NCBI GenBank assembly: GCA_050084515.1
Contig: CM114271.1
Location: forward strand, 16,244,001 to 16,308,000
Origin: Blasia pusilla
Lineage: Eukaryota
Length of the DNA: 64,000 nt
Reading direction: 5' to 3'
The notes beneath the pieces are model-generated. The model was given only the letters and a program-made list of their open reading frames with translations. It was not told the DNA's origin and did no database searches. Positions 2,179 to 64,000 of this stretch are shown here, one piece after another. The stretch's first letter is position 1. Every line of letters starts with the position of its first letter. Both the position numbers and the translations under genes were made by a program.

Positions 2179-2407
2179 TGTGGAGATTCGTCCAAGACCT
2201 TAGGCCTGTCAAAAATAATTTGCGAAGGTGGGAACGAGGGAGTAAGTGCGTCTCTCGAAAATCCACTCCATATGGATGCCAATTCGCAAAAGACGATGTG
2301 GAGATTGGTCCCAAGACCTCAGGCCTTTCAAAAATAATTCGCGAAGGTGGAAACGAGGGAGCAAGTGCGTCTCCCGAAAATCCACTATTCGGATGCAAGT
2401 TTGCAAT
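2179..2407. repeat. Two diverged tandem copies of a ~118-bp unit
   Basis: tgtggagatt..ccaagacct..aggcct..caaaaataatt.gcgaaggtgg.aacgaggga..aagtgcgtctc.cgaaaatccact starts at 2179 and again at 2297. Confidence 0.85.
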
Positions 2408-2486
2408 AGAAATACGACGCCTGAATAAGAGCGTATGGAAACGCCCATTGAAAGTTCGGGAAGGTGCGTTCATGGAGTGGACTACC

Positions 2487-2650
2487 CATGAGAAAAGAAA
2501 TCCCATAACTTCTAATTTATACTATTTCCGGAGGAGTGATTTTCAAATGGGGACAGCATAGAGAACCCATTTGAAAAAGACATGAGAAAAGAAATCTCAT
2601 AACTTCTAATTTATATGGGGACATCATAGAGAACCCATTTGAAAAAGACA
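2487..2650. repeat. Tandem duplication, second copy with an internal deletion
   Basis: catgagaaaagaaatc.cataacttctaatttat...atggggaca.catagagaacccatttgaaaaagac occurs at 2487 and 2581. Confidence 0.85.
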
Positions 2651-35200: not shown

Positions 35201-36033
35201 TGATTACGTCTTGACTTCCCCATCCTTCTCTCTTAGGTGTGCCAAATTGTGTATGGGGATCCTATTGATGCCAAGGGTATCCATATTCTCCGATGTGCAC
35301 ATGGTGGAAACGAACGGCCACACATGATGTCATTAGAGAGGCGGTAGCATCGGTGGCTCGACGGGGGATATACCGTTGGGCAAGAGCAACTCCACGCCCT
35401 ACCTTCAACCACACAAGCAACCTCTCGTCGGAGAGTGGATCTTGTTATGTCTCGAGGTGGATTCGGACACTAGGTGATGTGGTGGTTCTTTGATCCAACA
35501 CGTTCGACTTGGTGTGTAGAGCCGCACATACCAAAGGTTTGGCGGCCGAAGCTGCAGCAAGAATCAAGGAGTTAAGTTATCTTTGTGAGACATGCGATCG
35601 ACGGATTTATTCCATTTGCAAAGTGGAAGTATTCGGTCATTTACATGTGTCTTTTGATACTTTCCTCGAAAACATGTGCTCACCACTCCCTCGAGAATCA
35701 TCACCTTGCCCCTTCCCGTAGTCCTTCTCTCTCGGTAGTTACTACTTATTTTAGGCAATGCATCTCATTGGCCTTACAACGTGCACAAGCCTTGGCATTA
35801 ATACGTCGTGCAGAGGTGGTGGGAGGTCGCTCGCCTCGTCGTCCATTCACGTCTGACCAACCACTCGTGTTCTTGTCAGATTTGTTTCAAGCAATCAATC
35901 GTGTTGCTCGTTGAACCGGTATTTACTTTTTGCCATTTTCTTTTTGCATTCTTTTTATGCATTTTTTTACTCCTCTTTTGAGTTGTTATTAAGTTTCTTT
36001 GTCCTCTTTGAGGTTTGTTTTATAATAAAGTGG
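32220..36033 (+). mobile_element. CRE-like non-LTR retrotransposon, subfamily A, copy 1 (single ORF ~32424-35914, frameshifted); 5' boundary uncertain, possibly ~31700
   Basis: Pro/Ser-rich N-terminus and zinc finger CIPCGKDFAPNGIKRHQRYC. RT motifs: GVRPLAIGE, QFGVATPGGCE, QVDVANAFNSVSR, GTRQGDP, SIADDTHILG, GVRVLGVPIG. C-terminal zinc knuckle with THD, REL nuclease (RVDL..LGDVV..IKELSY..FIPF..EVFG) and ISLALQRAQA. Confidence 0.9.
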
Positions 36034-40400: not shown

Positions 40401-40683
40401 TGATGTGGCTGTTGTGGCTCGACCAGACAAATTCTGGGGTGAAACTCCATGCGCATTTGTCACACTTCGGGATCCCAGCATCTTGAACTTAGGTTCAGGT
40501 GGTGTTACTGAGGAAAGTGTTATCGAGTACTGCAGGACACATATGCCACGCTTCATGATCCCTCGCACGGTAGTGTTTGGAGACCTTCCCAAGACTGTCA
40601 CAGGTAAAGTGCAGAAGAATGTTCTGAGGGAACGAGCCAAGCAACTTGGTGCAAAGGTTGAGCAGACACCAAGTAAGTTGTAG
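37407..40683 (+). CDS. Peroxisomal acyl-activating enzyme (plant AAE clade, short-chain acyl-CoA ligase-like), 567 aa; exons 37407-37610, 38910-39993, 40268-40683
   Basis: Motifs ANYAPLTPLTF, AMP-binding YTSGTTSHPKGV, YLWTLPMFHCNGW, YGLTE, GWFHTGDL, DRSKDIIISGGENISS and LPKTVTGK. The C-terminus is SKL (PTS1). GT-AG junctions keep the frame (phase 0, then phase 1). Confidence 0.93.
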
Positions 40684-42485: not shown

Positions 42486-45400
42486 TCATGAACAAGTGTT
42501 CTCCCTTTCAACAGGCAGCTTCGCCTCAATTATTGAAGCTAACGCATCAATCGACTTGTAGACTCCTGGCTCTTCACGAAGTACTGCTTCAAATGCTGGG
42601 CTTGCACACCTTCAAGAACAGACCAGCAGATGTTAAAGTATCTGCAATGCCACACGCTTCTCACGTGGAAGGGCTGACAACAGACAAATAGGACTTTGTT
42701 TGATAGTTAAAATTTTGAGTATTCACCCATCCATCTGCTCAAATTTCAACAATCAAACAAAGTTCTTAGACTCGATGCTAAAAGATAGAATCCAGGTGAT
42801 GGACGGAGTGGAATAAGAGCTAGAAAGCCTTACATTAGCCTTACCAACCATGTACTTAATGGCTTGCATTTCAATATGAAGGAAACTCTACTTCTAAATC
42901 GATTACAAGATCTTCAATCACACAAGCCATGCATATTTCTAAATAGTACTGAAACGAAGATGCTTACAAGTGTAATAGATTGAAAACGTCTTTCACAGCA
43001 GTATGTACGTCCAAAGCCGACTTCCTGGTGCTCGACTCTTTATAGGTTTCTGCAAGCTCTTCCATTATTCTGAAGATGAAAACCATCAGTAAATTAAGTC
43101 CTCTCCATCTCCCTCCTCTCATATGGTACCTTCTTCACTTGCTTCTCTCTCTACACCCATCCCAGTCTCAAGCACCGTCCAACCAGGGCGCGGGGTCTAT
43201 GGTTGCAAGGCTACAACAGGCACTACTTAATGAGTACAGTCTCTAAACCCTTAACCCTAAATCGTCTGTCTCACGCACCGTCCAACCAGGGCGTGGGGTC
43301 TATGGTCGCAAGGCTACGACAGGCACTACTTAATGAGTACAGTCTCCTCTCTCTACACCCATCCCAGTCTCAAGCACCATCCAACAAGGGCGCGGGGTCT
43401 ATGGTCGCAAGCCTACGACAGGCACTACTTAATGAGTACAGTCTCATTAACTCTTGCGCCTTGTGTGACGATGGGGATGAAACCTGACATTACTTTCTGG
43501 GAAAGAAATCATCGAGACAGTCTGGTTTACTAAAACCAACATATAAGTAACCCCTCACTTATCCACAACGTTGCGAAATACAGTTTCAGAGTGTCACCTT
43601 TTGAGATGGGTAGGAATTCGGGGCCAGGTATGAGTTATCAGAGTCTGAAGTCTCAACAGCGCCTGCATATGTCATGGGCACAGGAGTTCCTTAGTTTACA
43701 CTGGTCTGTAAGAACTTAAGACACAGGCAGCAATCACAGTGTAACTGAGAGAAGGTTATCCTGTTCGGAGACTCCAAAACTTCAATTGAAGAGCATATGA
43801 GCCATTTCTTGGGACAGGCAAATTCAACTGCTGAAATAGAAAATGGCAGCTAAATGAGGAGACTGGCAAGCAGTATAATCAGATGGTGTGTGGCAACATA
43901 CCAAAATGCAGGTCATGTCATCTGGGGCATGGAGCCAGGTGTATAAAAGGGGCAACAGCTTTTTAAAGTGCACCACGAGAATAAGACCCATGGCCTCCAT
44001 TTGTGGCAAGATCTCTTGGAGCCAAGCAATGCGTCGAGACTTATCATCTCTTTGTCTCTCAAGTTCGCAAATCATTTCACTGAAAATTCGTCCATACCTT
44101 CAAATATCAAGGTCATTGAAAGAATTAAGGGCATGCCTATACTTTACTTTAACAGCATACAAGAGGACACCTAAGCTGAAAAGATATAAAGTGGTGTATC
44201 ATTCAGCACTAAATTTCAAAACTCAAGAATCTCACCATGATCCCCGAGGGTTCTTTCCTTCCATGCGAGTAACAGTTTTAACAGCCATCTTCACAGCAGC
44301 TGGCCAGAGATCTCCACAGCCAACTAAACTCCGGCACACACTATCAAGAATGACATCCTTGTACCACCTAAGCTCAGTTGGGTTCATGTTCTGTGCCAAA
44401 TAAATGAAGGCTCTCATGGCTTGTCTCTAAAACACATCAACCACACAAGACGTCAGCTCACAACTATCAACTAGACTGATACAGTCCTTCAAAGAAAGAT
44501 GACACACTTAAGTCATCAACCACCATATGAATATACACGCACCTTAACTTCAGGAGAAAAGTGATCCAAAGCGGTCAGGGCGCAAGGCATCACCACATGG
44601 CAATGTTGTCCCAATTGTGAATGTTCCAACTGCCAAAAAACAATGCCACCGTTCAAAAAACAATCACAGTCTCACATACATATCACCACTACCTGTGGTA
44701 AGTGCTTTCAATCTGATCTCTAACTCGATAGCTGGCGCAAATCAGCAGATTGTGATGTGCAGAAGTCCACAGACGTGTCTAGTGGATCTACCTGTCTCAC
44801 ACACCATTCCATCTGATGGGCAGCGACAATAGCTGAACCCAAGCTCCCATCAGGAGAGACTTTGTAGAGGACTTCATCATTTCTAGTTTCTGAACTCCCC
44901 TTCATCATATCCTTGAGTCTTGGCATCATCGAGGGCAGGTGTTCTGAGATCAGACTAGGAATGGCCTTGGAAAGTGAATTCCCCAAGCCACCACCTACAG
45001 TCACGTCACAGACTTCAGTGGCCTTGGACAGATGAGTCAACAACTTCACAGAATACTCACGGAGCTCTTTAGAAGTCCATGCTACTGCTCCTCCATATTC
45101 TCCATCACCACCGGCAAAGGCTGCACAGCAGAGAATTATATCTTCCACCATTTTCCTTTTCAGTAACTCATCCTGAGGTAACCATCCTCCAGTTTCAATG
45201 ATACATTTGGAGATAGAAAGAAGCAGATGTGCCAACTCAAGAAAATCCTTTGTTTCAGACTTCATCTTGTCATCCACCAAAGTCTTGGTGAGTTCTGGTC
45301 CTACTTGAAGCATCTGCCAGGACATAACTCAACAATTTCAGTACATGATGCCAAGGGTAGTGAAAAAAGAAAGTATGTCACTCCTCAGGCCAGACTACAT

Positions 45401-47415
45401 TCCTTGGGTATTCTCAAGGCAAATCAGCAAGTTGCGTTTTACAGACCTCTACAATCTGTCGCATGGCCATTTCTTGCTCTGGAACATGTTTGTGATCCCT
45501 TGGAACACATCCTGAGATTTTATTCACAGCCAGGGGGGTCACTGATTCGTTACCAGCCAAGGCTTCGAAGGAAATAGACAGAGCCTTCAGAACTGTCACA
45601 ATATTTATGGTCATTAATGCACTGGCAGAGTCTTCATCTATCATCCCTGCACTTCGGTAAGTTCTTGCTAGGTACATTCCTGGTAGAAAATAAGGTGACT
45701 TGGCACTGAGCATGGATGCAAGAGACTGGTAGTAGCTTTGAGCGCCCAGGCACCTGAGACACAGCCATAATCAGTCAGCAGCTAATGTCACTAACTGTAG
45801 CAAACCAGTGCAATGACCTTCAAATGTTAGGAAGACCAATCTTTTCAAATGCATCATGTAAATGGTGCTCACCATCAATGGGTCTACAGTGAAAAACAAA
45901 GCCTCATCACCTCAAGAATAGCACGAGCCTGGTTTCAAGGAGCCGACTTTTTCTCTTATGAGCATCCTCGAGGGCTACAGCCACAACCACCACAAGAAGA
46001 GGGACTACATCAGTTGGTATTTCTCCCTCTTTTTGCAGTTCTCTTGACGTTGGCAATGGTAGAAGCTGCAGAGAGACTGCAGCAGTTATCCCAGCCAAAA
46101 GAACTTCTCCATCAGGCAGATTATCCAGACAGGATGGCTCCTTTAATGAAAAGTTTGTAAGCTTTGATGACACAGCTTCTGCACCAAGAGTTACCGCAAC
46201 AAAACGGTCACAGAGAGCAGAGATTACACCCTGTTGAAGGCCCACAAAGTTACAGAGTCTGACTCAGTTTGGTAAAGCTTAAATGGACGTGACCCATTGA
46301 TTCCAAACAGCTCACACCCACACAGACAGTTTCTGAAGTTCATTGAAGCTGGAGTCCAACTGCAAGGGAAAAGTCTTGTGAGTTGTTCAAGCATTCAGAA
46401 TAAGTAAAATATGAAGCTACTCACATAACGCTTGTTGTAAGATGACAAAAGTCGTTGTAAAATAAATTCTGACGCAACGGTTTGCACTTCTGGTTGGGGA
46501 TCCATGCATGTTGCAAGTACTCCCCACACAATTTCTGCAAACCTGTCGGATCCTATGTCAGTATCCGGACTCAGACTATGGTATACAAACCACAGGATTT
46601 GAAAGACATGGGAGTCACCATGCAGTTTGATCTCGAATTGTATATAAGGTTTTTAACATTGGCTGAATAAGAAGTCCAACTCTGGATAGGAATATGGATC
46701 GTATCAAAGAAATTATCCATACAATGACAGGACACAGAGAATGGTTGACAGGGTTTACGTTGTAGCCGAAAGTAACTCCCGTGTTGCTGACAGGATTCTA
46801 GTTGCAGACTCCACTGCAGCTACTCGAACCTTGTTTCAAGCGAACAATTGAATAATGCAGCCAAGGACACCATTTGTCAATTTCACCGTGCAATATATCC
46901 AAGTGTACCCTTCACAAGTACTTTGTTTCAATACCAGCACGTACACTACGTCACCAATTGTAAGCTAAGTTCTGAAAAGCAGGGAGCATTCAGTGGAGCA
47001 GACATTGCACAAGCACATCTTGCTACCAACACTCGAGAATGTAATTTTTACAAACCACCGACCAAAGATTAATATTTCTACAACGGACTCAGAAGCATGG
47101 ATTTCCAGTCAAGTTCAAAACAACACCAACCTGCCATTGCGAGTCCTTGAGGGAAATATCGTGAACTAGTTGACGCAGCAGCTTCTCGTAAAGCTCAACA
47201 TCCACAGTATGTAACTTAGGAGCTAATTTTGGTCCACCACCAGGGATTTCCATCTCCTCTCCAACAATCAAGGCCTCCGGTCCACCAATATCAATCCCTA
47301 AATCCTCTCCGACGATCAAGCGGGCTGCAAGCTCCGCAGCTGCAGCTCTTTCACGCCAGCGCGGAGCCTTCAGCCCCTCACAACCCAACAGCCCTTGGAG
47401 CTTCAGCTGATCCAT
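42486..47415 (-). CDS. TTI2-like (TTT co-chaperone) HEAT/ARM-repeat protein, roughly 14 exons
   Basis: Exons traced by GT-AG and frame include 47415-47131 (..DSQWQ), 46829-46759 (VRVAAVESATRIL) and later exons encoding MPCALTALDHFSPEVK, ELRWYKDVILD, RRIAWLQEI..MGLILVVHFKKLLPLLYTWLHAPDD and LITHTWPRIPTHL. The final exon ends ..ERENTCS* at 42486. These motifs resemble plant At2g39910/Tti2-family proteins as recalled; internal exon boundaries are approximate. Confidence 0.72.
43145..43446. repeat. Three tandem ~100-bp copies in an intron of the TTI2-like gene
   Basis: gtctca.gcacc.tccaac.agggcg.ggggtctatggt.gcaag.ctac.acaggcactacttaatgagtacagtctc occurs three times. Telomere-like taaacccttaaccctaaa separates copies 1 and 2. 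Confidence 0.9.
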
Positions 47416-47737
47416 CGCTGCCAATACCAGGGCAGCGTCCTCTCCAGCCGACTGAAAGAAACGCTGAGATCGCACCTCTCGTTTGTATTGCACGGTCCAA
47501 TTCCCTGTCTCCGAATTCCTTGTGTCTGACGGTTGAGAAATACGGGGACGACTCAGACGCTTGCTCCTAACGCATGTCCGGCGTTCGAGCGCAGCTATTT
47601 ACCTCGGCCGTGAAATCTCCGGCCAGCGATGTCCGCCCTCTCCTTCTCCTGCACTTTGGAACACATCCTCCGATTCAGACGCCGGGCCTCGCGTGAATGT
47701 TTGAAACGAACCATTCAATTCTCGAATGAGGTGACAG

Positions 47738-49530
47738 ATGCCGAGGGTTTAGAGAGGTGACAAGTTTCATAAAATAAAAATTTACGCATCTATATACCAC
47801 ATATGCATAATACGACAACATAGGCACTCTTGAATTTTCTTATATGGGTAGAAAAAGGAAACGAATAGGATTTGAATGGAACATGTATTAATCAATTAGT
47901 AAGTAATTTAATATTATAATGGCTGATTATAAATATTAATGAAATATGATAAATAACCAAAATTTTAGAATTTTTACTTCAATTCATATTTGATGGAGAA
48001 AAGAATAAATATTTAATGGAAGAGTAAATTTTTTAAAATTTGATGGAAAGATAAAATTACTTAGTGTATTGGGATATCATTTAAATTTGAATGGAGGATT
48101 ATAATTACTAAGAACAGTGGAATACTATTACTCTTCTAAAATTTTAGAAAATAAAATTCATATTTGAAATAAATAGCATGATCATTTTAAGAAATTATTG
48201 TATTAATTCACATGTTATATTTTGGGAAAGGAAAATGAATTTGAATGGAAAAAGAAAAGTTTGAATTTGTGTGCAGCATCATTCATCCCTTCATTAACAA
48301 AAACTCTTCAAACACATTTTTATTTTCCATGCATCGCACGAGTACCTAACTAGTACGTACTAATCCATATCTATACTATTATGACGATAAATTTAACCGG
48401 GAGCAAGAAAATGTCAGAAAAAAAATTTGAATTTGTGTGCAGTATAATTAATCTCTTCACGGGCTATACACTAGTTCTTATTTATTTCCCGTGCATGGCA
48501 TCGGCACCTTATTAGTTATTATTGGAGGGTGCCTTCTTAATTTGCAAACATATTTCTCATTTACATGTGATGAAATGAGATGCCGAGGATTTAGAGAGGT
48601 GACAAGTTTCATAAAATAAAAAGATGAAAGGATTTGAGAAATTTGAGTGATTTTTATGTTTACGCATATGTATTATTCCATATCTATATTATTATGACAA
48701 TAACTTTAACAGGGAGCACGAAAATATCATAAAATTGTTATTTTTGAATTTGTGTGCAGTATAATTAATCTCTTCACATGCTATACACTAGCTCTTAAAC
48801 ACTTTTTTATTTCCCATGCATGGCGTCGGCACCTTACTAGTTATTATTGGAGAGTGTCTTCTTAATTTGCAAACACATTTCTCATTTACATGTGGTAACC
48901 AGGTAGCAAGAAAATCTTTCCTATTCTACAAGTAACAAGAAAATAAATTGTGTGCACTAGGATTAGTCCCTACACTCTCATGCATGGCATGAGCAACATG
49001 GTACTTTAAGAAAAAGAGTTCAATTCATAGGAGACAAGTAAATGGAGAAGAGAAAAGAGGAATGGAGGCTTTTTAAAATTTGAAGATCACCCGTAAATAA
49101 CATGGGTCGACATATGAGGAGGGTTTTCTCAAACCCCATCCCTCTTTCAACTATTTAGATTAGTCAATACTTGTGCCCGGTGGAGGTGAAAAAAGCCTTC
49201 CTTCTCATCTAGTTTAGTTAGATGAAACTAAGGTATTAGAGATGATAGGAGTCGAGACTAGAGACAACCCCAAAGGACAGGTGTTGAGTAGAGAAATGTT
49301 TGTTCTTGAGACCCATGTCGCCAATAATAGTATAGATTATGTAACACTAGTCGATAAAGAAGCTATGAAATTAAGCTACTAGAGGGGACAGGTGTTCATA
49401 CCAAGATAACCAAAAGAAGCCTTCCTTCTCATCTAGTTTAGTTACATGAAATTAAGCCATTAGAGGAGATATGTGTCAAGTAGAGAGATGTTTGTTATTG
49501 AAACCCTGTTGCTCATAATATTATAGACAC
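47738..49530. repeat. AT-rich cluster of Helitron-end-derived duplications
   Basis: Contains tctatactatta-type 5' ends and (c)cgtgcat.gcac..ctagt-type 3' ends. 48370-48570 repeats at 48680-48895, 47738-47780 at 48580-48622, and 49190-49340 at 49415-49530. It shares the module seen in the 12.4-13.9 kb array. Confidence 0.6.
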
Positions 49531-50849
49531 TAAATTATTAAATATTTTATTCATTTGTGGATTGGATTGTTATTCTTATATGAAGAGAAGTTTAGATTGA
49601 TGATTCCTACTTAGACATTAAAGGAAATATGTTGTTAAATATAATATTTAACTATCATTCTTTTGATGTTGAAATTGAAAGAAACCATATGTAGGTGTAT
49701 GATGTAGGTGGTTTATAAATTTTTTTTTATGATGATCAAACCACATATTGTATGAAGGTGCAGGGTTTTTTCTAATCATGAAAAAAAAAGTTTTAAACTA
49801 TAGTTTCCCGAGTAGTCAAGTAATCGAGGAGCCACAATGGTAGCGCATTCTCGTATGTTGAGTAATCTCCATATTTAGGTTCCATCAAAGCTCTACTCTA
49901 AACGCACACACGAACTATGCCACTTTGTATCTTTAAGAATTATAATATATTCATAATTTGGTCATATTTTATACTCTCAAATTGCGTTGCTAGTTTGTTC
50001 TTATATTGCTATTTTGCATATGGGTTTGCCAATAATAATACGGATTTAGGAAGTTGGATGTTTTCCGTTAGGGTGTGTCACTCGATATCCCGTGGAAGAA
50101 TCCGTACATGTCATATGTCCATAGGGGGGTACATGGTACCTTGAGAAATACTTGAAAAGAAAGGTTTTACCCATGGAATGCCCAATGGAAAAGGATCAAA
50201 AATTCCCACGAGACACTGTATGATATACCCTACTCAAAGCCTTGTCGTAACATCTTCAAAGAATCCCCCTTTCTCGAAAGGCAAAACGCCATATGCATAT
50301 GGAAGGGATTACATGTGTATATTGAAAATTATATTTCTACATTGTGATCTATTTAAGTGTGAAAAAAATGTCTCAAAATCATAAAAAGAAACCAATGCAT
50401 AAGATGAGCAAATTGCTAGTAAAGTCTTGAAGAGTGATTCGGGAAAGTGTCATAAAGGTCTAGAACTATGGCTCTTGTTGTCTTCCCCATTGACTCGGGT
50501 CTCTTATGAGGTGATTTCCGATTTTGGAATTGATATTGTTAATGGAGGATAGCTTTTTTGCTTTGCATATGACAATAGACCTCGAAGAAAATGCTTCCAT
50601 CATAGAGGAAGCAAGAAATCATGATTGTTGGTCTCGTGCATAGCTTGAGCTCTACACTAATATGTTTAGAGCCCAATACTCTAGAACTTTGTGACACGAT
50701 GCAATGTCTCCAATTTTAGGTCAAAAAAGAGCTTTCTAGTTATTAGCTTAAAACTTTATGATTCAGATCATTTGATTAGAAGTTAGTAGAAGATCTTGGT
50801 AAGGGATATAAAGTCTATGCCCATTCTATCGAGTGTTGGAAAACCAAGT

Positions 50850-51800
50850 ACACCCTCATCCGATGCTGCTCAGCTTCCTAAGCTAATAATTCATGTCAAA
50901 CAATTCAGGTCCATCGCTTGACCCGAGGCATGACGCATGCATGGGATTTCCTCTGGGAAATCCCAACTCTCGCTCATCAGTGTTAGGCTCCACCAACCGT
51001 TGTGCTTGGTCATCCCAAACTAAGCCAGGACCAACCTCCTTATATACATAGGAAGCGGGAAAACTTACAAACATGGGAAAAGATTCCCATGCCAATCCTG
51101 TTGACCACAGTCATCATGCCTCGTTGCGTGTGATCAACGACCGGAATCCATAATGGAATCCACCAACAAATTGGAGGGTTGCTCCACTCTCACATACATC
51201 CTCCGTAACACCTCACGTGGCACCAAATTGGTCCGCCATAGAACCTACATGATACGCTCGTGAACCTACATTTGCCACATCCAAAAGTAGTGTTGGGCCG
51301 ATCTATGGACTTGCCTAATTAATGTGCAGTTGTCACCACATATGAACTCGCATTGCCCAAAACAGGCACATTCTCCAAGATGTAAGATGGAGAATGGGAG
51401 TGATGTTTCTGCAAGTGTCGTAAGATGCTCATCATCTCCCAAAATGATCTGCACTCAGTGTCAGCTAACTCGCTACCTCATCCAACACTCGATTGGCCCC
51501 AACATGGCCAACCAACAATGACCAAATCAATAGTCTCTACTTGCTCCAAGCCCTACGCCCCCAACAACGAGATATCCCTTGGTAGGGAACTCCGATACCC
51601 CTGTACAACGGACGTAGAGAACAAGTCAGAAAATGGACGCATAATTGTGCCACCCGTCAAAGTGAAATGTATCTTGGAACCTCATCAAGCTCGACATACA
51701 GATACTACTACACATGCACTACTGTTTGCAAAATAAGAGCAAACCTAGTGTTGATCCCTTCAAAGAGATCTAACAATCGAATATCCTTCTCACCATTGCG
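50850..51800 (-). pseudogene. C5-cytosine DNA methyltransferase domain (DNMT3/DRM-type catalytic motifs, unpermuted order) within the retroelement polyprotein
   Basis: Motif I LLDLFEGI (51756-51770), YLYVELD (II), IDLVIVGWPC (IV, 51502-51513), YILENV (VI, 51367-51375), GSRAY..WRTNL (VIII-like), ERELGFP (IX) and GQAMDLNCL (X, ~50900-50925). Several in-frame stops and frameshifts are present. Confidence 0.85.
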
Positions 51801-54800
51801 CCACACAATTGGTGTAGTGTCCAATGGGGTCATAGTAGCACTCCCAGCTATTTCTGGTTCCTCTGACCGATCACGCTCTAGTGCAAACATCTCACTCTAC
51901 GCAATCTACATGTGCTCATTGGCTAAGTGTTAGAGCTCCTCACTCGAGCCCCTCATTGGCACCTCCCTTGCACGGACTAATGCGGCTATCATAACACTCC
52001 TTTCCGTAGAAGTGTTAGGCGTGGGTTTGTCCTTTGCATGGACATGCCCCTCAATCAAATCACTAGACCAAGTTATGGCACTTTTGAATGCTCATAGCGT
52101 TGCCATCTCTTCTGGCCATTGCTCGATCACTCCACCCGTGAATCGAACGATAACGACCTAAATCGCCCATCACCTAACTGTCATCCTAGTCTATAGGAGG
52201 CTTACTCCTCCCGGTAATCCAAGGAAAACCCCATTTGGTATAACACTACTCCTCCAACCAAGACTTCCTAGGACTCGACATCTGTCACTATCGCCTTGGC
52301 TCTCACCACGGACTCATCTGATGGATGTCTTTGTCGAATCCTCACCACGACTTCATGTTGGGTGATGAACTGCGTTCTACTTGCTCCATCCAAGGATTTC
52401 CGTATCCTGAATGGACAACGCTCCATATCAGCCCTCGTTAGGTCCAATCCTCTAAATGCCACTCTCCCCAACATCACGTGTTGCACTCTTGAATCCAATA
52501 AGACGTGGTACGGACAAAACACTCCACCTCTTAGACTCACCAAATGGAACACCTCTCCCCGGTTATCTAGCAATAAATCACCGAGCAAAACCATTGCATG
52601 CTCTATCGTGGGCCTAGCGGGCATCTCCGTCATCCTAGAAGTTGCAACCTACCATGAATTTGAGGTGGATGGCCCTAGCATAGGCTCAAAGGGCAAGTCC
52701 ACCACCTCCTCTATAATCACCTCTAAACATGATGCACGAACACCAACTCCACGGTCGCGTAGCGTAGCATCCAACTGGAAAACCTCGACACGCTTACCTC
52801 CCAACGTCATAACATCGGAAGTGGAGAACCATGGGGCATGGTATATTGCAGTGGCCGCCCCCCAACAATGTACTAGACACGGGCTCCATGCGAGCATCTG
52901 CGATAGGAGTCGTTGCACTCGCTTCTCCCACTGCCCTCCGTGCCTGCACACCAACATCATAAAATCTCAAAGAACTCTGATCAGGACCCATCGATGGGGT
53001 CCTCATCGCTTCGGAAAACATGAAAGACTGAGGAAGTCAGGTTTGTTTCCTGGCTTCCCCTCTCTACGGATCCAACTCTGCAGTTGGTCAACAAGTAGCA
53101 AAAGCGGCCTCCTCAGATGATGTTAATCCTTGCAGCCCGCACATCCAACCAGGATCCTTCATGTCTCTGGCTGCTCCATATGACGTCGATGCCACTCACG
53201 CGGCATTGGGTAACCGCAATGCCATAGCGGCAATCTGCTACTACAACTGCTCTATTTGAGTAGCCATCCCATCCTCACGCCCTACATCTCCCTTGACACG
53301 TCTAGGTGGCGGACCTCTACCTCCTCCATGAGCGTATCCACTAATCCCTCAAGCAAATCTAACTCCTCCTCCCCCAACGCGACCACTAGGTGCACGACCT
53401 CTAGGCCCACCCGGACCGGCAACTCGCTCTGGTGCCTTCTCTGGCCCTCGGTCCGAACATAACTCAAGATGTAAGCTGAAACATCGAACGCGTGTTCGTA
53501 TGATCATACTGCTGACAATGATCACATTGGTAAACTCCTAGTGTGGGTCCATCTCCTCCTCCAAGTTAAGAAACGCGTCCACTACCCTGACGAGTGCAAT
53601 CCTGCTGACTGTGGGCTCCACCACATGCCCAAAAACTAACTCTCGACGGTTTTTGCTACTGTTGCGCTGTATATGATGGTGTATGTTGTAGTGGCACAAC
53701 CTCCCAGCATCCTCCCTGCGCTCGTGGTACCACAATCCTCTCTCAAAATCCACGTTGATGTACTAGTGATACAGGAAATCGTGACTGCTCTTGCATATGA
53801 CCCATGGTTGCTACGCTGTCCTCAACCAATACACTTTGCCATCTCAAACACATCTCTCAACGTAGGTTAGGTGCGCATAAATAGTACCGCATCCCTCACC
53901 CGTATCCATAGGTCTCGTTCCTACATCGCATACCATGCCTGGACAGCCTAAGCGTCCGTCACCATCTGAGTGATGCTAATCAGAAGACCCAGGCGAGTAT
54001 TGCCTCCCGCAAACTCTCTCCCGTGTGCCTATAGAAGTCATGGATGCTCTGAAACTTCTCACTCCATACCCCTTGGTAGTTCCTTCGCAACTTCGCAAAA
54101 ACCTCAACCACAGGGTTGAACCTAAGACGAATATGACTGGATGATGCAACTGCCTCACTCCAACTCACCCCTCCTAGCACATCGCTTGTAGTAGAGGAAG
54201 TTGCCTCTCATATCTCCTCCTCCTCTTATGAAAATGACTCAGTCCATGACATATAATTTGGGTCATAGTAGAGTCTCCATGCTCAATCTCACATGCGTAC
54301 ATGTGGGAAAACTCATGGTTATCGTCCATGGATACGCCCTCTAAATGTTGGAATATGTCGTTCCTTGTGAACGTGTTGAACTCTCTAAAGTTCCTAGCCC
54401 TCTGTTCTCTAAAGTTCCTAGCCCTCTGTGAATCACACCAACTCCTAAACTTCTCAATGAAGTCGTGCAACTCTATGGTACCTAAAGCTCCTAAAATCCT
54501 ACGTGGTCCTCTATCCAAGTTACCCATCTCGTACGCCCAAGGGGTGGGACCACTCAATGTGTACGATGATACACCAACAAACTTCTCTACGCCCTCCCCC
54601 TCATCTGAGGATGACATAGAAGGAGGTCGAGGTGGTCCCTCACATGGAGACCCTCGAAACCTCGCGCCACTACGTGTGAATTCCCTAGAGCTACTCTCAA
54701 ATCCACCCTAGGATCCACCACCTTGCCTCCCAAAGTCCCGAAAGGACGTCGTGATGACCCTCGTACCCCTCTCATACGATCACTCCCAATCTTGTGAATA
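50850..54800 (-). mobile_element. Decayed LTR-type retroelement: gag, zinc knuckle, aspartic protease, C5 DNA methyltransferase; RT, RNase H, integrase and LTRs not found
   Basis: Colinear minus-strand pseudo-ORF: gag-like 54617-53800 (IELHDFIEKFRSWCD, LRRNYQGVWSEK..GESLREA), knuckle CDHCQQYDH..RC at ~53480-53530, protease-like VLLDSRVQHVMLG at ~52470-52510 followed by EVLVGGVVLY, then a DNMT domain. Confidence 0.8.
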
Positions 54801-55859
54801 ATCCCTCAATCACTCATACTAAACATGCGACACTCAATCTACACTCCCTCTCAATGAGACGTGTACTGTCCGGAAATAAGCGGTGTGATGCGGAAAATCA
54901 ACTGCTGTCATGTCATGTCATCGACAGAACATACCCTCAACTCTAGACATCCCACACAAGTCTATATCCCCTAATCTCACACATCAATGATGCTCTCAAC
55001 ATCTTCACTAAACCGAATATCCCCAAATAATTGCCCAATACCTGGAAATTCCCTCACATGTACAAGGAAAAAGACCAAGAGGGGTAACTTGAACAAATAT
55101 TGATGTCGCATCTCAACAACTACAAATCTTGACCCCAACTCGGTGGTGAAGCAACACTCCTCCAACCATCAAGTTGGACTCCCTTGAACCTAACGATGCT
55201 CAAATCTCCTTGATATGCGGTGTGGGTCTAGTGGTACGGTGCGGCACTAGTGGCACGGAACGACTACAAAGGGCATGGCACTCGGTGACGGGATACGGCA
55301 CACATCGGAATTCCCTCTTCTATCAACAATACACATTCTTTTCCTTAGTGATATTGCGACTTCGCGATTGAGACGGTATGGTGCGGCCACGAGCGGCACA
55401 ACGCGACAATCGACAACACATCACGGCTACGGGCATCACGCCACGATACCCAATTGTCACCGATTGGCTACAAATCACAAAGCATAGTAAAATAGAAAGG
55501 AAGCTACGACTCTATCACTCCAGGGGACGGTGCTCGCATACACCCTACGCGCGACGATCGAAGACCAAAATGTATCGGCGGCGGCCAAATCAACCAATCA
55601 ACGGTCATTGCTACGGTCCATCCTCTCGGTAACAACAATGCACGACAACCGACGACGGATAATAGCAACTAACGGCGGCGTCATGGACAGACGGCGTTCA
55701 CATGAACGGACAGGGCGCGGCGGAGCTCTACAGGATGGCGGCGGGGATGGGAAGGAGATTGACGATGGGATGGAGGATGGAGGGGGGTCGTGTGTTATAT
55801 CAAAACGGAGATACCAACTTCCTCTACGTTTTGATCCGTAGCGTCAATCTTCTAGTGAA

Positions 55860-58800
55860 GTATTTTTCAAAATTTTGTTTTTGTAGATTTTTGTTATTTT
55901 AGGGTTTCTCATGTAGGTATTAGGGTCCTCTTTGTTATCTCGTTTTGTTGTAATTGCTTTGAATGTTTCCAAGACAACTCATGTTGTTATTCCACACCAC
56001 CCCCTTTTCTTTTTCTCTATGTCCTTATTCTGTAGCCACACACGTTCCTCCTTCACGTTTGACCCATGTTTTTCTCCCTTATCCCACTCTATTCCCATCT
56101 ATTTTTTCCATCTATTCTTTTTCCATATCACTAGTACCTCCATACTATCTCTACATTATTTTGGGAAGGGGTTGGACCATATGTCCTAGGTGAAGATGGT
56201 AGATGAGAGTTCATACTAGGGAGAGCATTTCCATGGACGGAAAGAGAGTCGATTACCATTAGGGCTAGCTCGAATGGGGGTTGTGGGGCGGATTTTGGTG
56301 GGGTTTGTCTCTCGAGTTTGACGGAGGGGGGCTTGTTCTCTTCTTGGTGAGAGGTGTCCATTCCTCGACCCGCATCGGCCCCTCGCATAGGGGCTCGTGG
56401 GTCGTCTACCCGGGATACGAAATGCCCTTGTTGTCTCGAATTCTTCACTCGTTCAGGAATTCAGAACCATTTAGCGGCTAAAAATCCAGACTTTGATAGA
56501 TTCGGATGGGTGGTTCCTCCAGTCGATCATGGATGCTCACCGGTGCTTCATGCATCATCGCCCCCTCCCGAGGCATGGGAGTGGTTGAGGTCCCACCTTG
56601 GCAGCATCACAGGTCTCTTTGAGACCCGTTTTCCCTCCCCGAGGTTGTTTCATAGGATCCCCCATGCTATTCGGGATGAGCTCCGCCAATCTTTCCTCCT
56701 TCCCTTATCTAGGATCGCACTTGATCCTATGGATGAGCCCTCGTGGTATCTACTACTTCTCCTTCCATGATGGTGTCTTCGCTATACCCAAGAAGGGAAG
56801 GCTGGCCATAGAGAGGTTGTGGCCCAATTGCGGCGCTTCCGAGGAGGTGATTGGGAGTCTCTGCAGAGCGAGTTCGTGGCATATGCCAGAGGTAGCACTC
56901 CACGTGGTTTCCTAGCAGACGATCTTGTAGCTGCCACATTGCGACGATGTAGGAGACTTGGGCGAGCCGGGGAGTACTTGCAAGCGGCTGGTGCGCTCCG
57001 CCCTATGGATACGGCTCCTCCTTCCGCTGTTACCACCGACGCCCTCCGGAGGCTACACCCTCGTCAGTGGTTGACATCCCAGCATTTGTACGTGACTTCC
57101 ATCCTGACACGACCTTATGCCTAGATCCGTCCCTCTTTGCACGGGCACTCGGGCGTTCCCCTAGGATAGCAGCTCGAGGGTTGTTCGGTATGATGTACCA
57201 ACACCTTCGTGATTGCTTTCCCTCCGGGGACTCTGCTATCGGCTTTTTCGAGTTGCTTCAGGTTGCCTCTCACCTAGCTCAGGGGAGAGTGCCAACAACA
57301 GTAGCCCAGGTATTGGGGGCGGGGTGACTTTTGGAATTATCGAAGGAGGGTGGAGGGATCCGTCCAATTGCCATAGGGGAGGTGCTCTTGCGGTTGGTGA
57401 GTCGCACTATCGCTTTGCAGTTCCGTTAGGCTTTCCAGTCACATCTGAGTCCGCACCAGTTCGGAGTTGCCACGCCACCCGGTTGTGAGGCTGTAGCCTT
57501 AGGTTTGAGGGCTTGTTTAGATATACATCCCGAGTGGGTGGTTCTCCAAGTTGATGTGGAGAATGCCTTTAACTCAATGTCTCGGGCAGCTATCTTCATG
57601 GAGCTGAGAGACGCAAGGGATCCCATAGCGAGCTTGATTCCCTTTGTGCATGCTTTTTATGGGGGCCCCTCGGCTCTCTATTTTCACCATGGTAGGTTCG
57701 AGGGGAGGTCACGGTCTTGGAGTCTGCTACCGGGACGCGTCAGGGTGATCCCTTGGGTGGTGCATTGTTTGCTTTGGCTCATTATCGAGCGGTTCTTTCT
57801 ACGGTGGAGGCTTTCCCGGGTTGCATTTTCCCTCGTTGGGAGATGATACTCACATTGTCAGCCCTAGAGGCTTGGTTGTTCCTGCATTTTAGCACTTTTC
57901 AGCACAGTTGGCACACGTCGGCCTCGCGATGAAGGTGGGAAAGTGCAAGGCTTGGTCTTCATTAGGCTTGTCAGTGGATATTCATTTACCGGACAATTTT
58001 TTGACACCTGTTGGAGGGCTTCGCGTCTTGGGAGTCCCACTTGGGAGCCAGGACTTTGTATCGAGCTTTGTGGCGGCGGCTCTTACCGAGTATCTTCTTC
58101 ATGTCGACGATCTCACGAGGATTGGTGACCCTCAAGTAGCTTATGGAATCCTCTCGTCATATTTTTCCCGTAGACTTGGTTGTCTGTGTAGAACCGTGTG
58201 GGCGACTAGCCATATTTCTTCCTTGTATAGATCCTTTGATAGAAAGATTATGCAAGCGTTTGGGGATCTTCTAGGACCCGTCTCATTAGAGTGCCCCGCG
58301 GGGGAGTTAGCTCGTAGACAGGCTTCTTGGCCGATTGCCTTTGGTGGAGTAGGTCTCATAGCGACTCAGTTAGTGGTGTCTTCATCCTTTTTAGGGAGTT
58401 GGGTCATTGTAGCACCCCTCCTTTGCTCCCGATTTTTGGTTAGGGATAGACCGCTACTTTTACAGTATGTTTCCCAGGTTGAGGATGGTCTTTTCCCACT
58501 TCAATCTTCACTCACAGCTTGTAGAGACTCCCTTCTTGTTGAGGCTAGAGCAGTTCTTTCCGCTTTCTCTTCCCTAGTTACCTCCAGACAGCTGGGCTCC
58601 AATCTTCTTTGATGGAAGCCCACTTTGATGCATTGTTTAGAGCTACTATGTCGGATGGGAATATGCCCATGGAGGTTCCGGCCCGCATTCACTCTTGCTC
58701 CGGAAAGGGGGCAGGCTCATGGGTGGGGGCTCGTCCCCTCATCCCAGCTTTCCGCATCGCACCACTTACCTACACTACAACGATGAGGTTCCGACTGGGC

Positions 58801-59605
58801 CTGCCCCAACCAACAATGGTTGGTTCGACACATTGCGAGTGTCGCCGGAGTCTGGATCCACTTGGTGTGCATTTGGCACGATGTCCAATTGGGGGTGAGA
58901 GGATAGCCACTCACGATGCAGTGCGGGATATTATGTTCTCTATTGCTCGGGAGAGTGGATTCCATGTACAAAAAGAGAGGCACTACTCCATGCAAGATTC
59001 CCTTATCCGTGTTGATCTCTACATGACGAAGGAGTCTCAGGTGGTGGTAGCGGATGTTGTAGTGACGGATCCTGCGCGGGAGGCGGTGCGAGCCAAAGTG
59101 GTAGCACAAGGGAGATTGCTACAAGGAGCGGCGGAGGTCAAGAAGACCCACATTTATAGTCAACTTCATGACGGACATCGATTTATCCCCCTAGCCATTG
59201 AGATGTACGGGGCGATGGGAGAGAGGTTTGACTCGTTCCTTACGGATTGCGCCCATCATCTCCAGTCGAAAAATGGGTTGTCCTTAGCCACTGCGATACT
59301 TTATTGTAGGCAACGGGTCTCCATAGCTTTGCAACGCGCCCAGGCAAATGGGCTTCTGCGGCGCGCTCAGGCGGTTGGAGACGCCAACGCTTGAGGCCCA
59401 CTTAGTAGTAGTCATAGTTCTCTAGGTGTTGATGATATTTTCTCTGCTGTTGGTGATTTTGGTCGTTTGGGGGGAAGGCCACTTTCTTTCTAATCGGGAT
59501 CGATTCCGGCCTCTTTTTGGTCTATTTTTTGGGTCTCCATGCCCCCCTCTTTTGTATCCTATGGGTTTCCCATCCTTTTTCTACATATATATTTTATTTC
59601 GAATG
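55860..59605 (+). mobile_element. CRE-like non-LTR retrotransposon, subfamily B (frameshifted ORF ~56354-59394); boundaries approximate
   Basis: Zinc finger CPCCLEFFTRSGIQNH. RT motifs: IRPIAIGE, QFGVATPPGCE, QVDVENAFNSMSR, GTRQGDPLGG, GDDTHI, GLRVLGVPLG. C-terminal CECRRSLDPLGVHLARC..THD, RVDL..VADVV..KKTHIY..RFIPLAIEMYG and RVSIALQRAQA. Confidence 0.9.
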
Positions 59606-60116: not shown

Positions 60117-63100
60117 CCACTTTATTATAAAATAAACCTCAAAAGAGGATAAAGAAAGGTAATAACAATTCAAAAGAGGAGTAAAAACATGCATAAAAGA
60201 ATGCAAAAAGAAAATGGCGACAAGCCCACGTAAACATCGGCTCAACGAGCAACGTGATTGATTGCCTGAAACAAATCTAACAAGAACACGAGTGGTTGGT
60301 CAAACGTGAATGGACGACGAGGCGAGCGACCTCCCACCACCTCCGCACGACGTATTAATGCCAAGGCTTGTGCACGTTGTAAGGCCACTCAGATGCATTG
60401 CCTAAAATAAGTAGTAACAACCGAGAGAGAAGGACTACGGGAAGGGGCAAGGTGATGATTCTCGAGGGAGTGGTGAGCACATGTTTTCAAGAAAGTATCA
60501 AAAGACACATGTAAATGACCGAATACTTCCACTGCAAACGGAATAAATCAGTCAGTCGCATGTCTCACAGCATAACTTAACTCCTTGATTCTTGTTGCAG
60601 CTTCGGCCGCCAAACCTTTGGTATGTGCGGCTCTACACACCAAGAGAGAACGTGTTGGATCAGCAACCACCACATCACCTAGTGTCCAGAATCCACCTCG
60701 AGACATAACAAGATCACTCTCCGACGAGAGGTTGCTTGTGTGGTTGAAGGTAGGACATGGAGTTGCTCTTGCCCAACAGTGTATCCTGCCGTACGAGCCA
60801 CTGATGCTACCGCCTCTCTAATGACATCATGTGTGGCCGTTCGTTCTCCACCATGTGCACATCAAAGAATATGGATACCCTTGGCATCAATGGGATCCCC
60901 GCATACACAATTCGGCACACCTAAGAGAGAAGGATGGGGAAGTCCAAGACGTAACCGCAAAGTTGTCGAGAATATACTTCGAGGAAGACGAAATGGAAGA
61001 ATAAGAGGATTTGCAGTAAGCCACGCCCCCACTCTGGAACCCGCACATGAACGTAGACGAGCTCGATTAGCGTCGGAGGATGCCTCTGAGAGAATGCTGG
61101 AAAAGTTGATTTGATGCAGATTCTCGGAGATATGCTCTTGAAGTCGATCAAGCCCTTCTATAATTAGTTGACTGAAAGGGGGTAGAATTGCTTGTGTAGC
61201 AAGAGGAAGAAGAGCTCGTGCAGATCTTAGTTGTTGTTGAAATAACAAGTCCCCCTCCTCGACATGGGCGATATGATCCATCAAGATAGGTGTATCTCCT
61301 TGGAGAAACCTTGAAGCCATAATCGGTGCTACCAACGCCCAGCTCCCCAAAAAGGCTACGGGAGCAAATGTGACTGTGGAGGATAGTCCCACCCCTCCAA
61401 AAGAAATAGGCAAGATAGCTTGTCGTGAAGCAAAGACACCATCCTCTCCCCCAAAGGTATTCGGGCCAAGAAGTTGACCAAAATTTGCCAAGATAGAAGC
61501 ATCAAAAGAGGCCAGCCGATGTAAGAAGCTTGAAGTGGGAGGACAAGTGCGAAGAAGGTAGGAAGGACGTCAAAGAAAATATTGGGAGAAAATCCCATAA
61601 GCCACTTGGGGATCCCCAAGATGATGTAATAAATGAAGCCATTCCACGTCTTTCAAAAGGGCCTCATCCAAGAACTTTGAGACATAGTCGATGAAGCCAA
61701 TTGGGACCCCAAGAACTCTAACCCCTTCAATGTAAATGGGAAAATCAGGAGTAGGTGGGGTGAATGTTGAGGGAAGGCATGAAGGAGACCATACTCCACA
61801 TTTACTAGGTTGGACTTTAAGGTTTAAGAAAGAGAGTTGCTCCACAAAATGGGTATAAGAAGGAACCACTTCAGAAGGAGGACCTAAAATGTGAGTGTCA
61901 TCGACAATAGAAGGGAAAAGACAAGATGGAAATGCTTGCGCTGATGCTCGAAGGGCACGAAAATGGGCAATGGCAAAGAGTGGGCCCCCCATGGGATCAC
62001 CTTGACGTGTGCCACAAGCCGATTGTAGAATACTATATTCCCCAAAAGTAGCATGATGGGAATAGATAATGGGCGTATCATAGGCATAGAAGGAGCAAAC
62101 AAATGGAATGAGGCTCGCGAGTTGTCCTCCTGCACAACGTAATTCCTCAAAGATGGTCGCACGAGAAACTGAATTGAATGTGTTAGCCACATCGACTTGA
62201 ATTGCTACCCAATCTTGATGAATATCAAGAGTGAAGCGAATCCCATGAACCACAACCTCCAGGAGTTGCCACTCCAAATTGATGAGGAAATAAGTGGGCA
62301 CTAAAGTGAGGACGAAATTGCAAGCATAGGGATCGACTGACCAAGCGGTATAAAACCTCTCCAATAGTCAAAGGGCGCACACCTGAAGGAGGCTTGTCCA
62401 TAGCTAACAAACGACAAGCCCCTAAGAGCCTAGAGATAGAGAATGGGAGACGACTTGCCACCATATGTGCACACACCTTATATAGAGAGACAAAGCCACT
62501 TGCTGAATCTACTGGGATAAAGCAATTGCGGAGATGCTCAAAAACCATCCCTGATAGCCCGCTTGCTGATAAGCGAGGAGTATGCAGAAAAGCCCTTGTG
62601 AAAACCTCCAAGTCAAGCTCCAAGTCAAGGTCTGTTGTATAGTCTTCCACAAAAGATGGAGCATCGCCACTTGAAGGAGGATGAAGAGCTTCTAAGAGAG
62701 CCACTGTTTCCGCACTTGGAACCGCCGGAGAAAGAGGACCCAATGCTCGAGCTGCACGTGAAAACTCACCAACCTGCCCCAATAGTAGACTTCGTCGAAG
62801 CCATTGTTGTATTGAAGGCCTGCCATGATTGGCATGTTGAGTGGGATGAGCCGCAGCTAAGGCCTCAGCTCGAAGTACATGCTCATTCTGAAGATTCTCC
62901 CAATCCCCTGACATAAAGCGTTGAATACGTGTGGAGGTTTCACGATGACCCGTTGCATCCCCTTGGAGGGAGGACTAAAACCCATTGTGGGAAGAGTAAT
63001 AGGAGATACCAAGCATTTATATCTGTGGGGTCACGCGCTAACCTTTCTAATGGGAATAGCAAAGTTTGTTGGGTGATGGGATGAAGAGCAATACGAATGC

Positions 63101-64000
63101 AAGTGTAGAGTCTAGGACGAGGAAGACCTGGATGGAAAGAGCGAAGGAGATCAATTTGGCTTAACCAGGTCCAAGCAATTGTTGTGGGGAGTGCAGTAGG
63201 AGTTGGTATCGGGTTAGGGATTGAAGGCCCATGCATGGATTGATAATACCGCTGATGTCTTTTGATCCCATTAGGAGCAAAGTCCTTACTATAAGGTATG
63301 CAACGAACCATCACCTTTGTGACCCATGTGGAGAAACACTTGGCCTCCACCATTTTTGTTTCATCTAAGGAGAGGAGGTGGGAGGTGCAAGAGGTGGTGA
63401 TGGCCGACGATGAGGGGGTAAATAGGTTGGGGAAGGAGGAGGAGGAAGAGGGGAGATTCGGGTAGAATAGATGGGAGTTGGAAGCAAGGGCATAGATGAG
63501 ATATGTGGGGATGGCAAAGTAGAAGGATTCGGTAATAATGGATCAGGATTAGGCTCAATAGGACAAGGCAAAGAAGGGAGAAGAGGAGAATCCGGAAGAA
63601 ACGTAGCGAGTGTAATGGGTGTATTAGCATCTGGAGGAAAATGGCGAGATCGACGATGAGGAGGTGAACCAAGGGGAGAGGTTACGGCTGTAGGAGGGCG
63701 TGTAAAACCAGATAAGCGAGTAGATGGAGAATCCAACTCCATCTCTGATGACATAGAAGTAAAGGTAGGCAAGTCTGCGAAGACAAGAAAAGACATACGA
63801 AACGTGGTTTGGAGAAAGCATGAGGATAACGAACAAAGCAAAAGTAGTGGAGAGATGAAGATTAGGCAATACCGAATTTATGATTGAAAGTTACTATAAG
63901 AAAATATAAAAAGTAAATGAAAAGGAAAAGTGGTGGATATGGTATCGGGAGAGGTGGCTCAAGAATATGAATTTCTAATGTCCTAAACGTATGTAGGGGC
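60117..64000 (-). mobile_element. CRE-like non-LTR retrotransposon, subfamily A, copy 2 (5' end runs off the window)
   Basis: The reverse complement is nearly identical to 32220-36033 over its length. It has the same RT (SIVDDTHILG), the knuckle CVCGDPIDAKGIHIL, the REL motifs and the 3' end tataataaagtgg. Confidence 0.92.

Follow-up and report, generated by a model that had tools for sequence, protein, structure and literature searches.

Analysis of a 64-kb stretch of the Blasia pusilla genome (contig CM114271.1; this whole stretch is referred to as the window) revealed a decayed coding sequence on the minus strand. With a probability of about 0.9, it is the relic (about 3.8 kb) of a dead Ty3/Gypsy-type long terminal repeat (LTR) retrotransposon that has been truncated at its 3' end. 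In this family, the first reading frame runs from gag through zinc knuckles and a protease (PR) into a DNMT3-like C5-cytosine methyltransferase (DNMT). The window copy is without function. Stops and frame changes interrupt it, catalytic residues are lost, and reverse transcriptase (RT), integrase (INT), and LTRs are missing.

Comparison of the window with related proteins by tblastn showed that positions 50,876 to 54,680 of the minus strand form a single decayed reading frame. Residues 9 to 1197 of the Marchantia polymorpha protein Mp_4g09160 (P0097; 1278 amino acids [aa]) correspond to positions 54,512 to 50,876 in eight collinear segments of 30 to 53% identity, and the segments covering the protease and the linker that follows it reached the best E value (5e-61). 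Another relative, P0105, extends the upstream match to 54,680. Along the collinear match, the order of the domains is gag, two CCHC knuckles, a retropepsin-type protease, and an unpermuted DNMT3-like C5-methyltransferase, and the match to P0097 contains no gaps of intron size. Proteins matching the same stretch come from Marchantia (14), Calypogeia (2), and Sphagnum (2). A first-pass annotation, made from the sequence alone, had placed gag, a zinc knuckle, a protease, and a DNMT in one intronless minus-strand frame at positions 50,850 to 54,800. The eight collinear segments bear out this arrangement, and the coordinates were right to within about 100 bases, with homology extending from 50,860 to 54,680. 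The parts of the element and the motifs read from the minus-strand translation are as follows.

53,830 to 54,680, minus strand: gag-like N-terminal region, decayed (P0105 residues 22-143 and P0097 residues 9-236, 30-52% identity, tblastn)
53,485 to 53,634, minus strand: two degenerate CCHC zinc knuckles, aligning to CWTCGGDHQRRDC and CDHCGRAGHTRDRC of P0097
52,151 to 52,855, minus strand: retropepsin-type protease region (P0097 residues 521-753, 39% identity, 157 bits, 4 stops)
about 52,487 to 52,504, minus strand: VLLDS of the protease
51,852 to 52,150, minus strand: linker between protease and methyltransferase, of no known family (collinear with P0097 residues 768-870)
50,876 to 51,851, minus strand: DNMT3-like C5-cytosine methyltransferase domain, decayed (P0097 residues 870-1197; PF00145, E 1.1e-4; phmmer)
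51,753 to 51,767, minus strand: motif I, DLFEG
51,499 to 51,513, minus strand: motif IV, GWPC
51,367 to 51,375, minus strand: motif VI, ENV
50,955 to 50,975, minus strand: motif IX, ERE-LGFP (GFP)
50,894 to 50,923, minus strand: motif X, GQAMDLNCL
50,860 to 50,876, no strand: 3' truncation point of the element (blastn coverage; P0097 residues 1198-1278 unmatched)

All motif strings quoted in the annotation (VLLDS, DLFEG, GWPC, ENV, GFP, and GQAMDLNCL) were recovered in the minus-strand translations in unpermuted order, distributed over three frames. Motif VIII of the methyltransferase reads LWRTN, and motif X (GQAMDLNCLT) is identical to that of Marchantia letter for letter. The copy had been described as dead, in agreement with the about 35 in-frame stops, the at least seven frame changes, and the damaged catalytic motifs that were found. 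The stops number 0, 11, 7, 4, 7, 2, 4, and 0 in the successive P0097 segments, which lie in frames -3, -2, -3, -1, -3, -2, -1, and -3. The first knuckle (FWACGGAHSQQDC) has lost its first Cys, and the second (CDHCQQYDH...) is interrupted by a frame change. The DSG of the protease active site is replaced by DSR (VLLDSRVQ), the FGG of motif I by FEG (LLDLFEGI), and the PCQ of motif IV by PCW (GWPCWGQS), and ILENV is kept. The catalytic residues FxGxG, PCQ, and ENV are therefore not all present in the window, which has LFEG and GWPCW and retains ENV. In gag, a perfect 24-nucleotide (nt) tandem duplication (54,382 to 54,429, minus strand; detected with TRF) adds eight codons relative to the Marchantia proteins, with RARNFREQ repeated.

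DNA-level homology to 80 related loci (blastn) falls to zero coverage below 50,860, and P0097 residues 1198 to 1278 have no counterpart in the window, which leaves the copy about 80 codons short of the end of the first open reading frame (ORF1) of its relatives. The DNA 3' of the truncation is unrelated and AT rich (GC content, 0.33). The upstream edge lies between 54,680 and a sequence resembling long interspersed nuclear elements (LINEs) that begins near 56,300. RT and integrase had been reported missing, and queries for RT-RNase H (RT-RH), integrase, and the PHD finger indeed gave no match at E≤0.01 in the entire 64 kb; the order RT, RNase H, integrase, by which Ty3/Gypsy elements are recognized, does not occur in the window copy itself. 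No noncoding homology (LTR or leader) between positions 48,000 to 57,000 and the 80 loci was detected by blastn, and Rfam returned nothing in 47,000 to 57,000. The observed/expected CpG ratio is 0.68 in the element versus 0.70 in the whole window, and therefore no distinct deamination signal is seen. A search of sequencing runs gave one DNA run with a word share of 0.05 and listed no RNA run. Next to the truncation point, positions 48,260 to 49,488 are AT rich (GC content, about 0.32 to 0.33) and hold several pairs of direct repeats at spacings of about 320 and 224 bases. On the upstream side, a LINE-like stretch (about 56,300 to 59,400, plus strand) adjoins the element; no Pfam family was found in the three pieces of it that were searched.

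To identify the methyltransferase, the window frame that contains motifs IV to VI, with X at stops (P0001), was used for Pfam and phmmer searches. P0001 matched Pfam family PF00145 with an E value of 1.1e-4 and a score of 22.2 bits (cut-off, 22) over profile positions 57 to 117 of 324, and the other two minus frames of the methyltransferase region gave no Pfam match. A phmmer search of 1.84 billion representative proteins yielded 79 matches at E≤1e-3, 9 of them at E≤1e-10. The best match (P0004) showed 51% identity (E 9.3e-25), and PF00145 was present in all 18 of the phmmer matches that were scanned. The ESM Atlas returned generic PF00145 clusters only, the first labeled "commonest Streptophyta," which serves as a lead only. 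A profile of 22 family members was then searched against the PDB sequences. The strongest matches were DNMT3A (E 2.5e-17), DNMT3C (E 1.3e-15), and DNMT3B (E 5e-15); HaeIII (E 3e-7), HhaI (E 1e-4), and the DRM enzymes of tobacco and Arabidopsis (E 2.2e-8 to 1.2e-5) followed. Residues 8 to 174 and 238 to 267 of the DNMT3A chain were collinear with the family profile. The AlphaFold model of the relative P0096 has a mean confidence (pLDDT) of 66.8, with the DNMT part mostly at 80 to 95 and the linker at low values. Foldseek placed DNMT3A, 3B, or 3C at every rank from 1 to 50 for this model (best E 1.6e-16; TM score, 0.76 to 0.81 over the target). By sequence and by predicted fold, the family methylase is nearest to DNMT3A/B/C among the PDB chains with which it was compared.

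The remaining domains of the first frame were recognized in the relatives. The family profile matched the HIV nucleocapsid and Copia virus-like particle chains at about 1e-3 through the knuckles. Zinc-knuckle family PF00098 was matched in P0061 and is recorded for P0083, and an aspartyl-protease Pfam family scored above its cut-off in P0035. A model of the protease region of locus L007 (pLDDT, 79) resembled the RVP domains of Ddi1 and the RSV, HTLV, HIV, and FIV proteases (E 7e-5 to 7e-3). In a motif table of 33 relatives, the protease motif D-S/T-G-A was found in 25, GWPCQ in 27, and the E-N pattern of motif VI in 32; many of the relatives that lack GWPCQ or the motif VI pattern are partial models.

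The structure of the complete element was deduced from 80 loci (L001 to L080), kept from 131 relatives that a pattern scan had found in metagenome contigs. Frames of at least 700 residues are present in only three of them (L007, L061, and L062). The intact element measures about 9.1 kb and consists of LTR, gag-PR-DNMT, an in-frame UAG or UAA, RT-RH-INT-PHD, and LTR. In L062, ORF1 (976 to 5082; 1369 aa) contains aspartyl-protease and DNA_methylase matches. ORF2 (5086 to 8226; 1047 aa) follows in the same frame after a single TAG and contains RVT_1, RNase H, Integrase_H2C2, rve, and PHD. The same structure is seen in L061 and L007. In the single protein P0061 (2188 aa), zf-CCHC, aspartyl protease, DNA_methylase, RVT_1, RNase H, and integrase follow one another in this order. 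The DNMT is present in 80/80 loci. PR lies upstream of it on the same strand in all 41 loci with 2.5 kb of upstream sequence, and RT-RH lies within 2.5 kb downstream in 32 of the 37 loci with that much downstream sequence. Integrase was found in 34 of the 80 loci and the PHD finger in 28 (tblastn), including L002, L036, L017, and L062. The integrase is terminated by this PHD finger (PF00628; E 2.6e-10 in L062). Three loci (L002, L036, and L017) have direct repeats of 307 to 339 nt (about 0.33 kb) that are 86 to 94% identical, lie about 8.74 kb apart, and bracket the coding region; those of L036 start with TG and end with CA.

These results agree with the proposal, made in the first-pass annotation, of an LTR-type family in a land plant with the DNMT placed between PR and RT. 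The order is seen in P0061, L062, L061, and L007, the counts for PR (41/41) and RT-RH (32/37) conform to it, three loci carry the repeats, and the named relatives come from Marchantia, Calypogeia, and Sphagnum. The annotation had also named, as evidence that would tell against it, a DNMT never linked to gag and protease in other copies; the linkage to an upstream PR was found in 41/41 loci.

The boundary between the DNMT and RT is marked by a conserved stop codon. The match to the N terminus of ORF2 begins at residue 1 or 2 in 52 loci; of these, 33 have TAG immediately ahead of ORF2, 17 have TAA, and 2 have a sense codon. TAG CAA CCC (25 loci) and TAA CAA CCC (16 loci) are the most frequent junctions. 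The end of the DNMT and the start of ORF2 share a frame in 40 of 53 loci, and the Marchantia proteins P0097 and P0098 terminate within a few residues of the conserved stop. A readthrough signal of the tobacco mosaic virus type is given as UAG CAR YYA in passages of PMC2754532; this context is complete in 4 of 55 junctions (L007, L061, L062, and L063). From the sequence of these junctions, we infer that the second frame is made by programmed readthrough of the stop.

Frame 1, comprising gag, two CCHC knuckles, the retropepsin-type protease, and the DNMT, ends in intact relatives at the conserved UAG or UAA, and RT, RNase H, integrase, and the C-terminal PHD finger, which follow in the same frame, would be made by readthrough of a leaky stop. 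Gag-PR-DNMT would be abundant and RT-RH-INT-PHD rare. Because the leaky stop sits after the DNMT, the methyltransferase would be made together with the abundant Gag-protease product. It could methylate the new DNA copy of the element or the DNA around the insertion site.

The distribution of the family was determined with a profile search for named relatives. Of the 26 proteins obtained, 14 belong to M. polymorpha, 2 each to Calypogeia fissa and Sphagnum, and 1 to Haematococcus lacustris; 7 are unnamed. The relative from Haematococcus, a green alga, is more distant than those from Marchantia, Calypogeia, and Sphagnum. Klebsormidium was absent among the named matches (8000 word-sharing candidates were scored per search). 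P0097 represents 18 member sequences, and of eight Marchantia proteins compared with it, six are 92 to 96% identical and two are 82 to 83% identical. Because six of the eight are so similar, the sequences point to recent multiplication in M. polymorpha.

A quick maximum-likelihood tree was calculated from 56 DNMT regions (rows covering at least 200 of 346 reference residues), with X at the breaks of the window copy. It placed the window copy in a clade of 20 rows (SH-aLRT, 99), the others being L007, P0096, P0101, and 16 rows from Marchantia (12), Calypogeia (2), and Sphagnum (2). These 16 are all but two of the 18 named bryophyte proteins; the two exceptions, P0095 and P0105, were below the coverage filter and are outside the tree. 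The window copy is located outside a tight M. polymorpha cluster (support, 100; end branches, 0.003 to 0.085). Beyond the 20-row clade are unnamed clades, with L061 and L062 among their members, and a clade with Haematococcus. A comparison of L061 with L062 gave dN/dS ratios of 0.15 for the DNMT, 0.15 for the protease, 0.04 for RT-RH, and 0.04 for INT-PHD, which are rough because dS is about 1.1 to 1.6 and near saturation.

A wider proposal is that one Gypsy lineage across green plants carries both a writer (the DNMT3-like enzyme, upstream of the leaky stop) and a reader (the PHD finger on the integrase) of chromatin marks and is still young and possibly active in M. polymorpha. We advance it tentatively and consider it rather doubtful as a whole. 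If it is true, a transposon-encoded de novo methyltransferase would contribute to or exploit methylation in a genetically tractable land plant.

Several observations weigh against the reading of the window copy as a Gypsy-type relic with a methyltransferase. The PF00145 score exceeds its cut-off by just 0.2 bits. Pfam gag, zinc-knuckle, and protease families gave no match at E≤1 in the three minus frames of 51,700 to 55,500; the profile check that the annotation had suggested was thus positive for PF00145 (E 1.1e-4) and negative in the window for gag and protease. These parts are nevertheless taken as real because the tblastn match of P0097 is collinear over eight segments. A CxC2 match in the same interval (E 0.16) was taken as noise. 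A repeat search of 40,000 to 64,000 revealed no LTR pair around the element, and no LTR, primer-binding site (PBS), polypurine tract (PPT), or target-site duplication (TSD) was found for the window copy, so that its nature as an LTR element rests on the relatives. Among these, visual inspection of the LTR borders of L036 brought no recognizable PBS, PPT, or TSD to light. The branch of the window copy is long (0.77), which makes its exact position in the tree unsure. Most junctions read UAG/UAA CAA CCC and not the tobacco mosaic virus-type UAG CAR YYA; since the strict context is confined to four junctions, the claim is limited here to a conserved stop with CAA after it. Finally, passages of PMC5890265 put no activity on record for a Gypsy-borne DNMT.

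Other origins of the window sequence were considered. The DNMT could be a host DNMT3-type pseudogene that lies by chance beside an unrelated gag-protease fragment, which would fit a window in which RT, integrase, and LTRs are lacking and Pfam detects the DNMT alone. This is very improbable, as single proteins elsewhere span gag, PR, and DNMT in the same order and spacing (P0097 residues 9 to 1197), PR precedes the DNMT in all 41 testable loci, introns are absent, and the window sequence falls within the element-borne clade. It is still less credible that the series of motifs is a chance likeness in noncoding DNA. The PF00145 match, at 22.2 bits versus a cut-off of 22, is marginal enough to suggest it, and it is refuted by the 79 phmmer matches at E≤1e-3 (best, 9.3e-25) and by tblastn E values down to 5e-61.

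The copy could also be the decayed remnant of a domesticated host gene that had retained gag-PR-DNMT without RT. Many annotated relatives stop after the DNMT (P0097, P0098, P0015, and P0083 to P0087), and the window copy likewise lacks RT. These proteins, however, end at the conserved stop, after which in-frame RT-RH-INT follows in the DNA. The Marchantia copies are multicopy and 92 to 96% identical (6/8), as expected of a transposing family, and P0097 alone stands for 18 member sequences. In the window, homology does not reach the stop; it ends about 80 codons before it, at unrelated AT-rich DNA. A domesticated gene is accordingly an improbable source, and the preferred reading is that of a truncated Gypsy-type element.

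The neighborhood of the relic contains genes and other repeats. Two inverted copies of one non-LTR (LINE-type) family, at 32,343 to 35,203 (plus strand) and 60,862 to 63,877 (minus strand), lie about 28 kb apart and together bracket the region of the DNMT element. Their N-terminal ORF text is near identical, and they match RVT_1 at 2.5e-12 and 1.2e-6; the stretch at about 56,300 to 59,400 is a third, related one with similar ORF text. At 17,401 to 18,732 (plus strand), a 444-residue ORF of the plastid triose-phosphate/phosphate translocator type has no introns, perhaps because it is a retrocopy or because the gene is naturally intronless. Among named sequences, it is most similar to those of Riccia sorocarpa (77% identity across 99% of the query length), Riccia fluitans (76%), and C. 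fissa (71%), and the named rows among the 120 matches listed are all from land plants. These matches are best explained by a liverwort-like land-plant host. A host gene for an AMP-binding (acyl-activating) enzyme at 38,889 to 40,683 (plus strand) consists of two exon-like ORFs about 200 bases apart (PF00501, 7e-61; PF13193, 2e-20). A unit of about 102 nt is repeated in tandem at 43,142 to 43,445, in three copies 78 to 94% identical to the reference copy.

In the published record, retrotransposons with a cytosine methyltransferase are known from dinoflagellates and one charophyte alga; the present family extends to liverworts and mosses. According to passages of de Mendoza et al. (2018; PMC5890265), such elements occur in Symbiodinium and in Klebsormidium nitens, where KnitGypsy-Dnmt3 was acquired "in the K. 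nitens lineage." Portions of PMC12344493 and of bioRxiv 10.64898/2026.05.21.726589 refer to "streptophytes" or "streptophytes (Gypsy-DNMT3)," citing PMC5890265. A literature search on DNMT-bearing retrotransposons found no land-plant description, although copies from bryophytes may appear in the supplements to PMC5890265 and PMC12344493. Portions of four papers that deal with methylation in bryophytes or land plants (PMC5784723, PMC6453930, bioRxiv 10.1101/2021.02.12.428880, and PMC11982613) are silent on transposon-borne DNMT. For a PHD finger after a Gypsy integrase, no report was found in titles and abstracts. Liverworts and mosses thus harbor a kind of element known from a charophyte alga, apparently without any earlier description in these plants, in agreement with the expectation of the annotation that they are poorly described in land plants. 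M. polymorpha has many copies with an open gag-PR-DNMT frame of 1278 residues. The question of what a transposon gains from encoding an enzyme that normally silences transposons can therefore be taken to a land plant with genetics, methylomes, and transformation. Any mechanism would be shaped by the conserved stop between DNMT and RT and by the PHD finger of the integrase.

Of the known systems, KnitGypsy-Dnmt3 resembles the present family, on its published description in passages of PMC5890265, in having a DNMT3-related, unpermuted, intronless methyltransferase within a Gypsy-type coding region. Purifying selection on the DNMT is a further likeness (Ka/Ks of <0.2 in excerpts of PMC5890265 versus a dN/dS of 0.15 for L061-L062 here). 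The hosts differ, being bryophytes (Marchantia, Calypogeia, and Sphagnum) and a chlorophyte in the present case. The DNMT of the present family shares a frame with gag and the protease and precedes a conserved stop, and a PHD finger terminates the integrase; the main text of PMC5890265 makes no mention of PHD. The repeats of KnitGypsy-Dnmt3 are arranged as in DIRS elements according to a legend of PMC5890265, whereas three loci here have plain direct LTRs. When expressed in yeast, the KnitGypsy enzyme produced no methylation, a result that its authors call inconclusive (PMC5890265, in part).

SymbioDIRS-Dnmt3 and SymbioLINE-DNMT of Symbiodinium are likewise described in sections of PMC5890265 as retroelements with a C5-DNMT, and the DIRS-borne enzyme is reported there to perform de novo CG methylation in yeast. 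In contrast to the present family, they belong to the DIRS and LINE classes, have no retropepsin-integrase backbone, and reside in dinoflagellate hosts. The EpiLTRs of Cymbomonas and Euglena, as outlined in parts of bioRxiv 10.64898/2026.05.21.726589, are LTR elements that also combine a C5-DNMT with a chromatin-reader domain. Their DNMT groups with DNMT4, sits at the 3' end of pol, and is accompanied by an adenine methylase and a chromodomain, whereas the present family has a DNMT3-like enzyme placed between protease and RT and a PHD finger as the reader.

The host DNMT3 and DRM enzymes of plants share with the element the catalytic fold and motifs of DNMT3A/B/C. The element DNMT differs from them in having no PWWP or ADD module and no introns. 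Its motif order is unpermuted, unlike that of DRM, whose chains match the family profile by their C-terminal half only (residues 228 to 346 versus profile positions 942 to 1066). Chromoviruses, which are not known to carry a methyltransferase, resemble the present family in having a domain of the histone-reader type at the C terminus of the integrase (PHD here, in 28/80 loci). The two differ in the identity of this domain, as a chromodomain follows the integrase in chromoviruses and a PHD finger does so in the present family.

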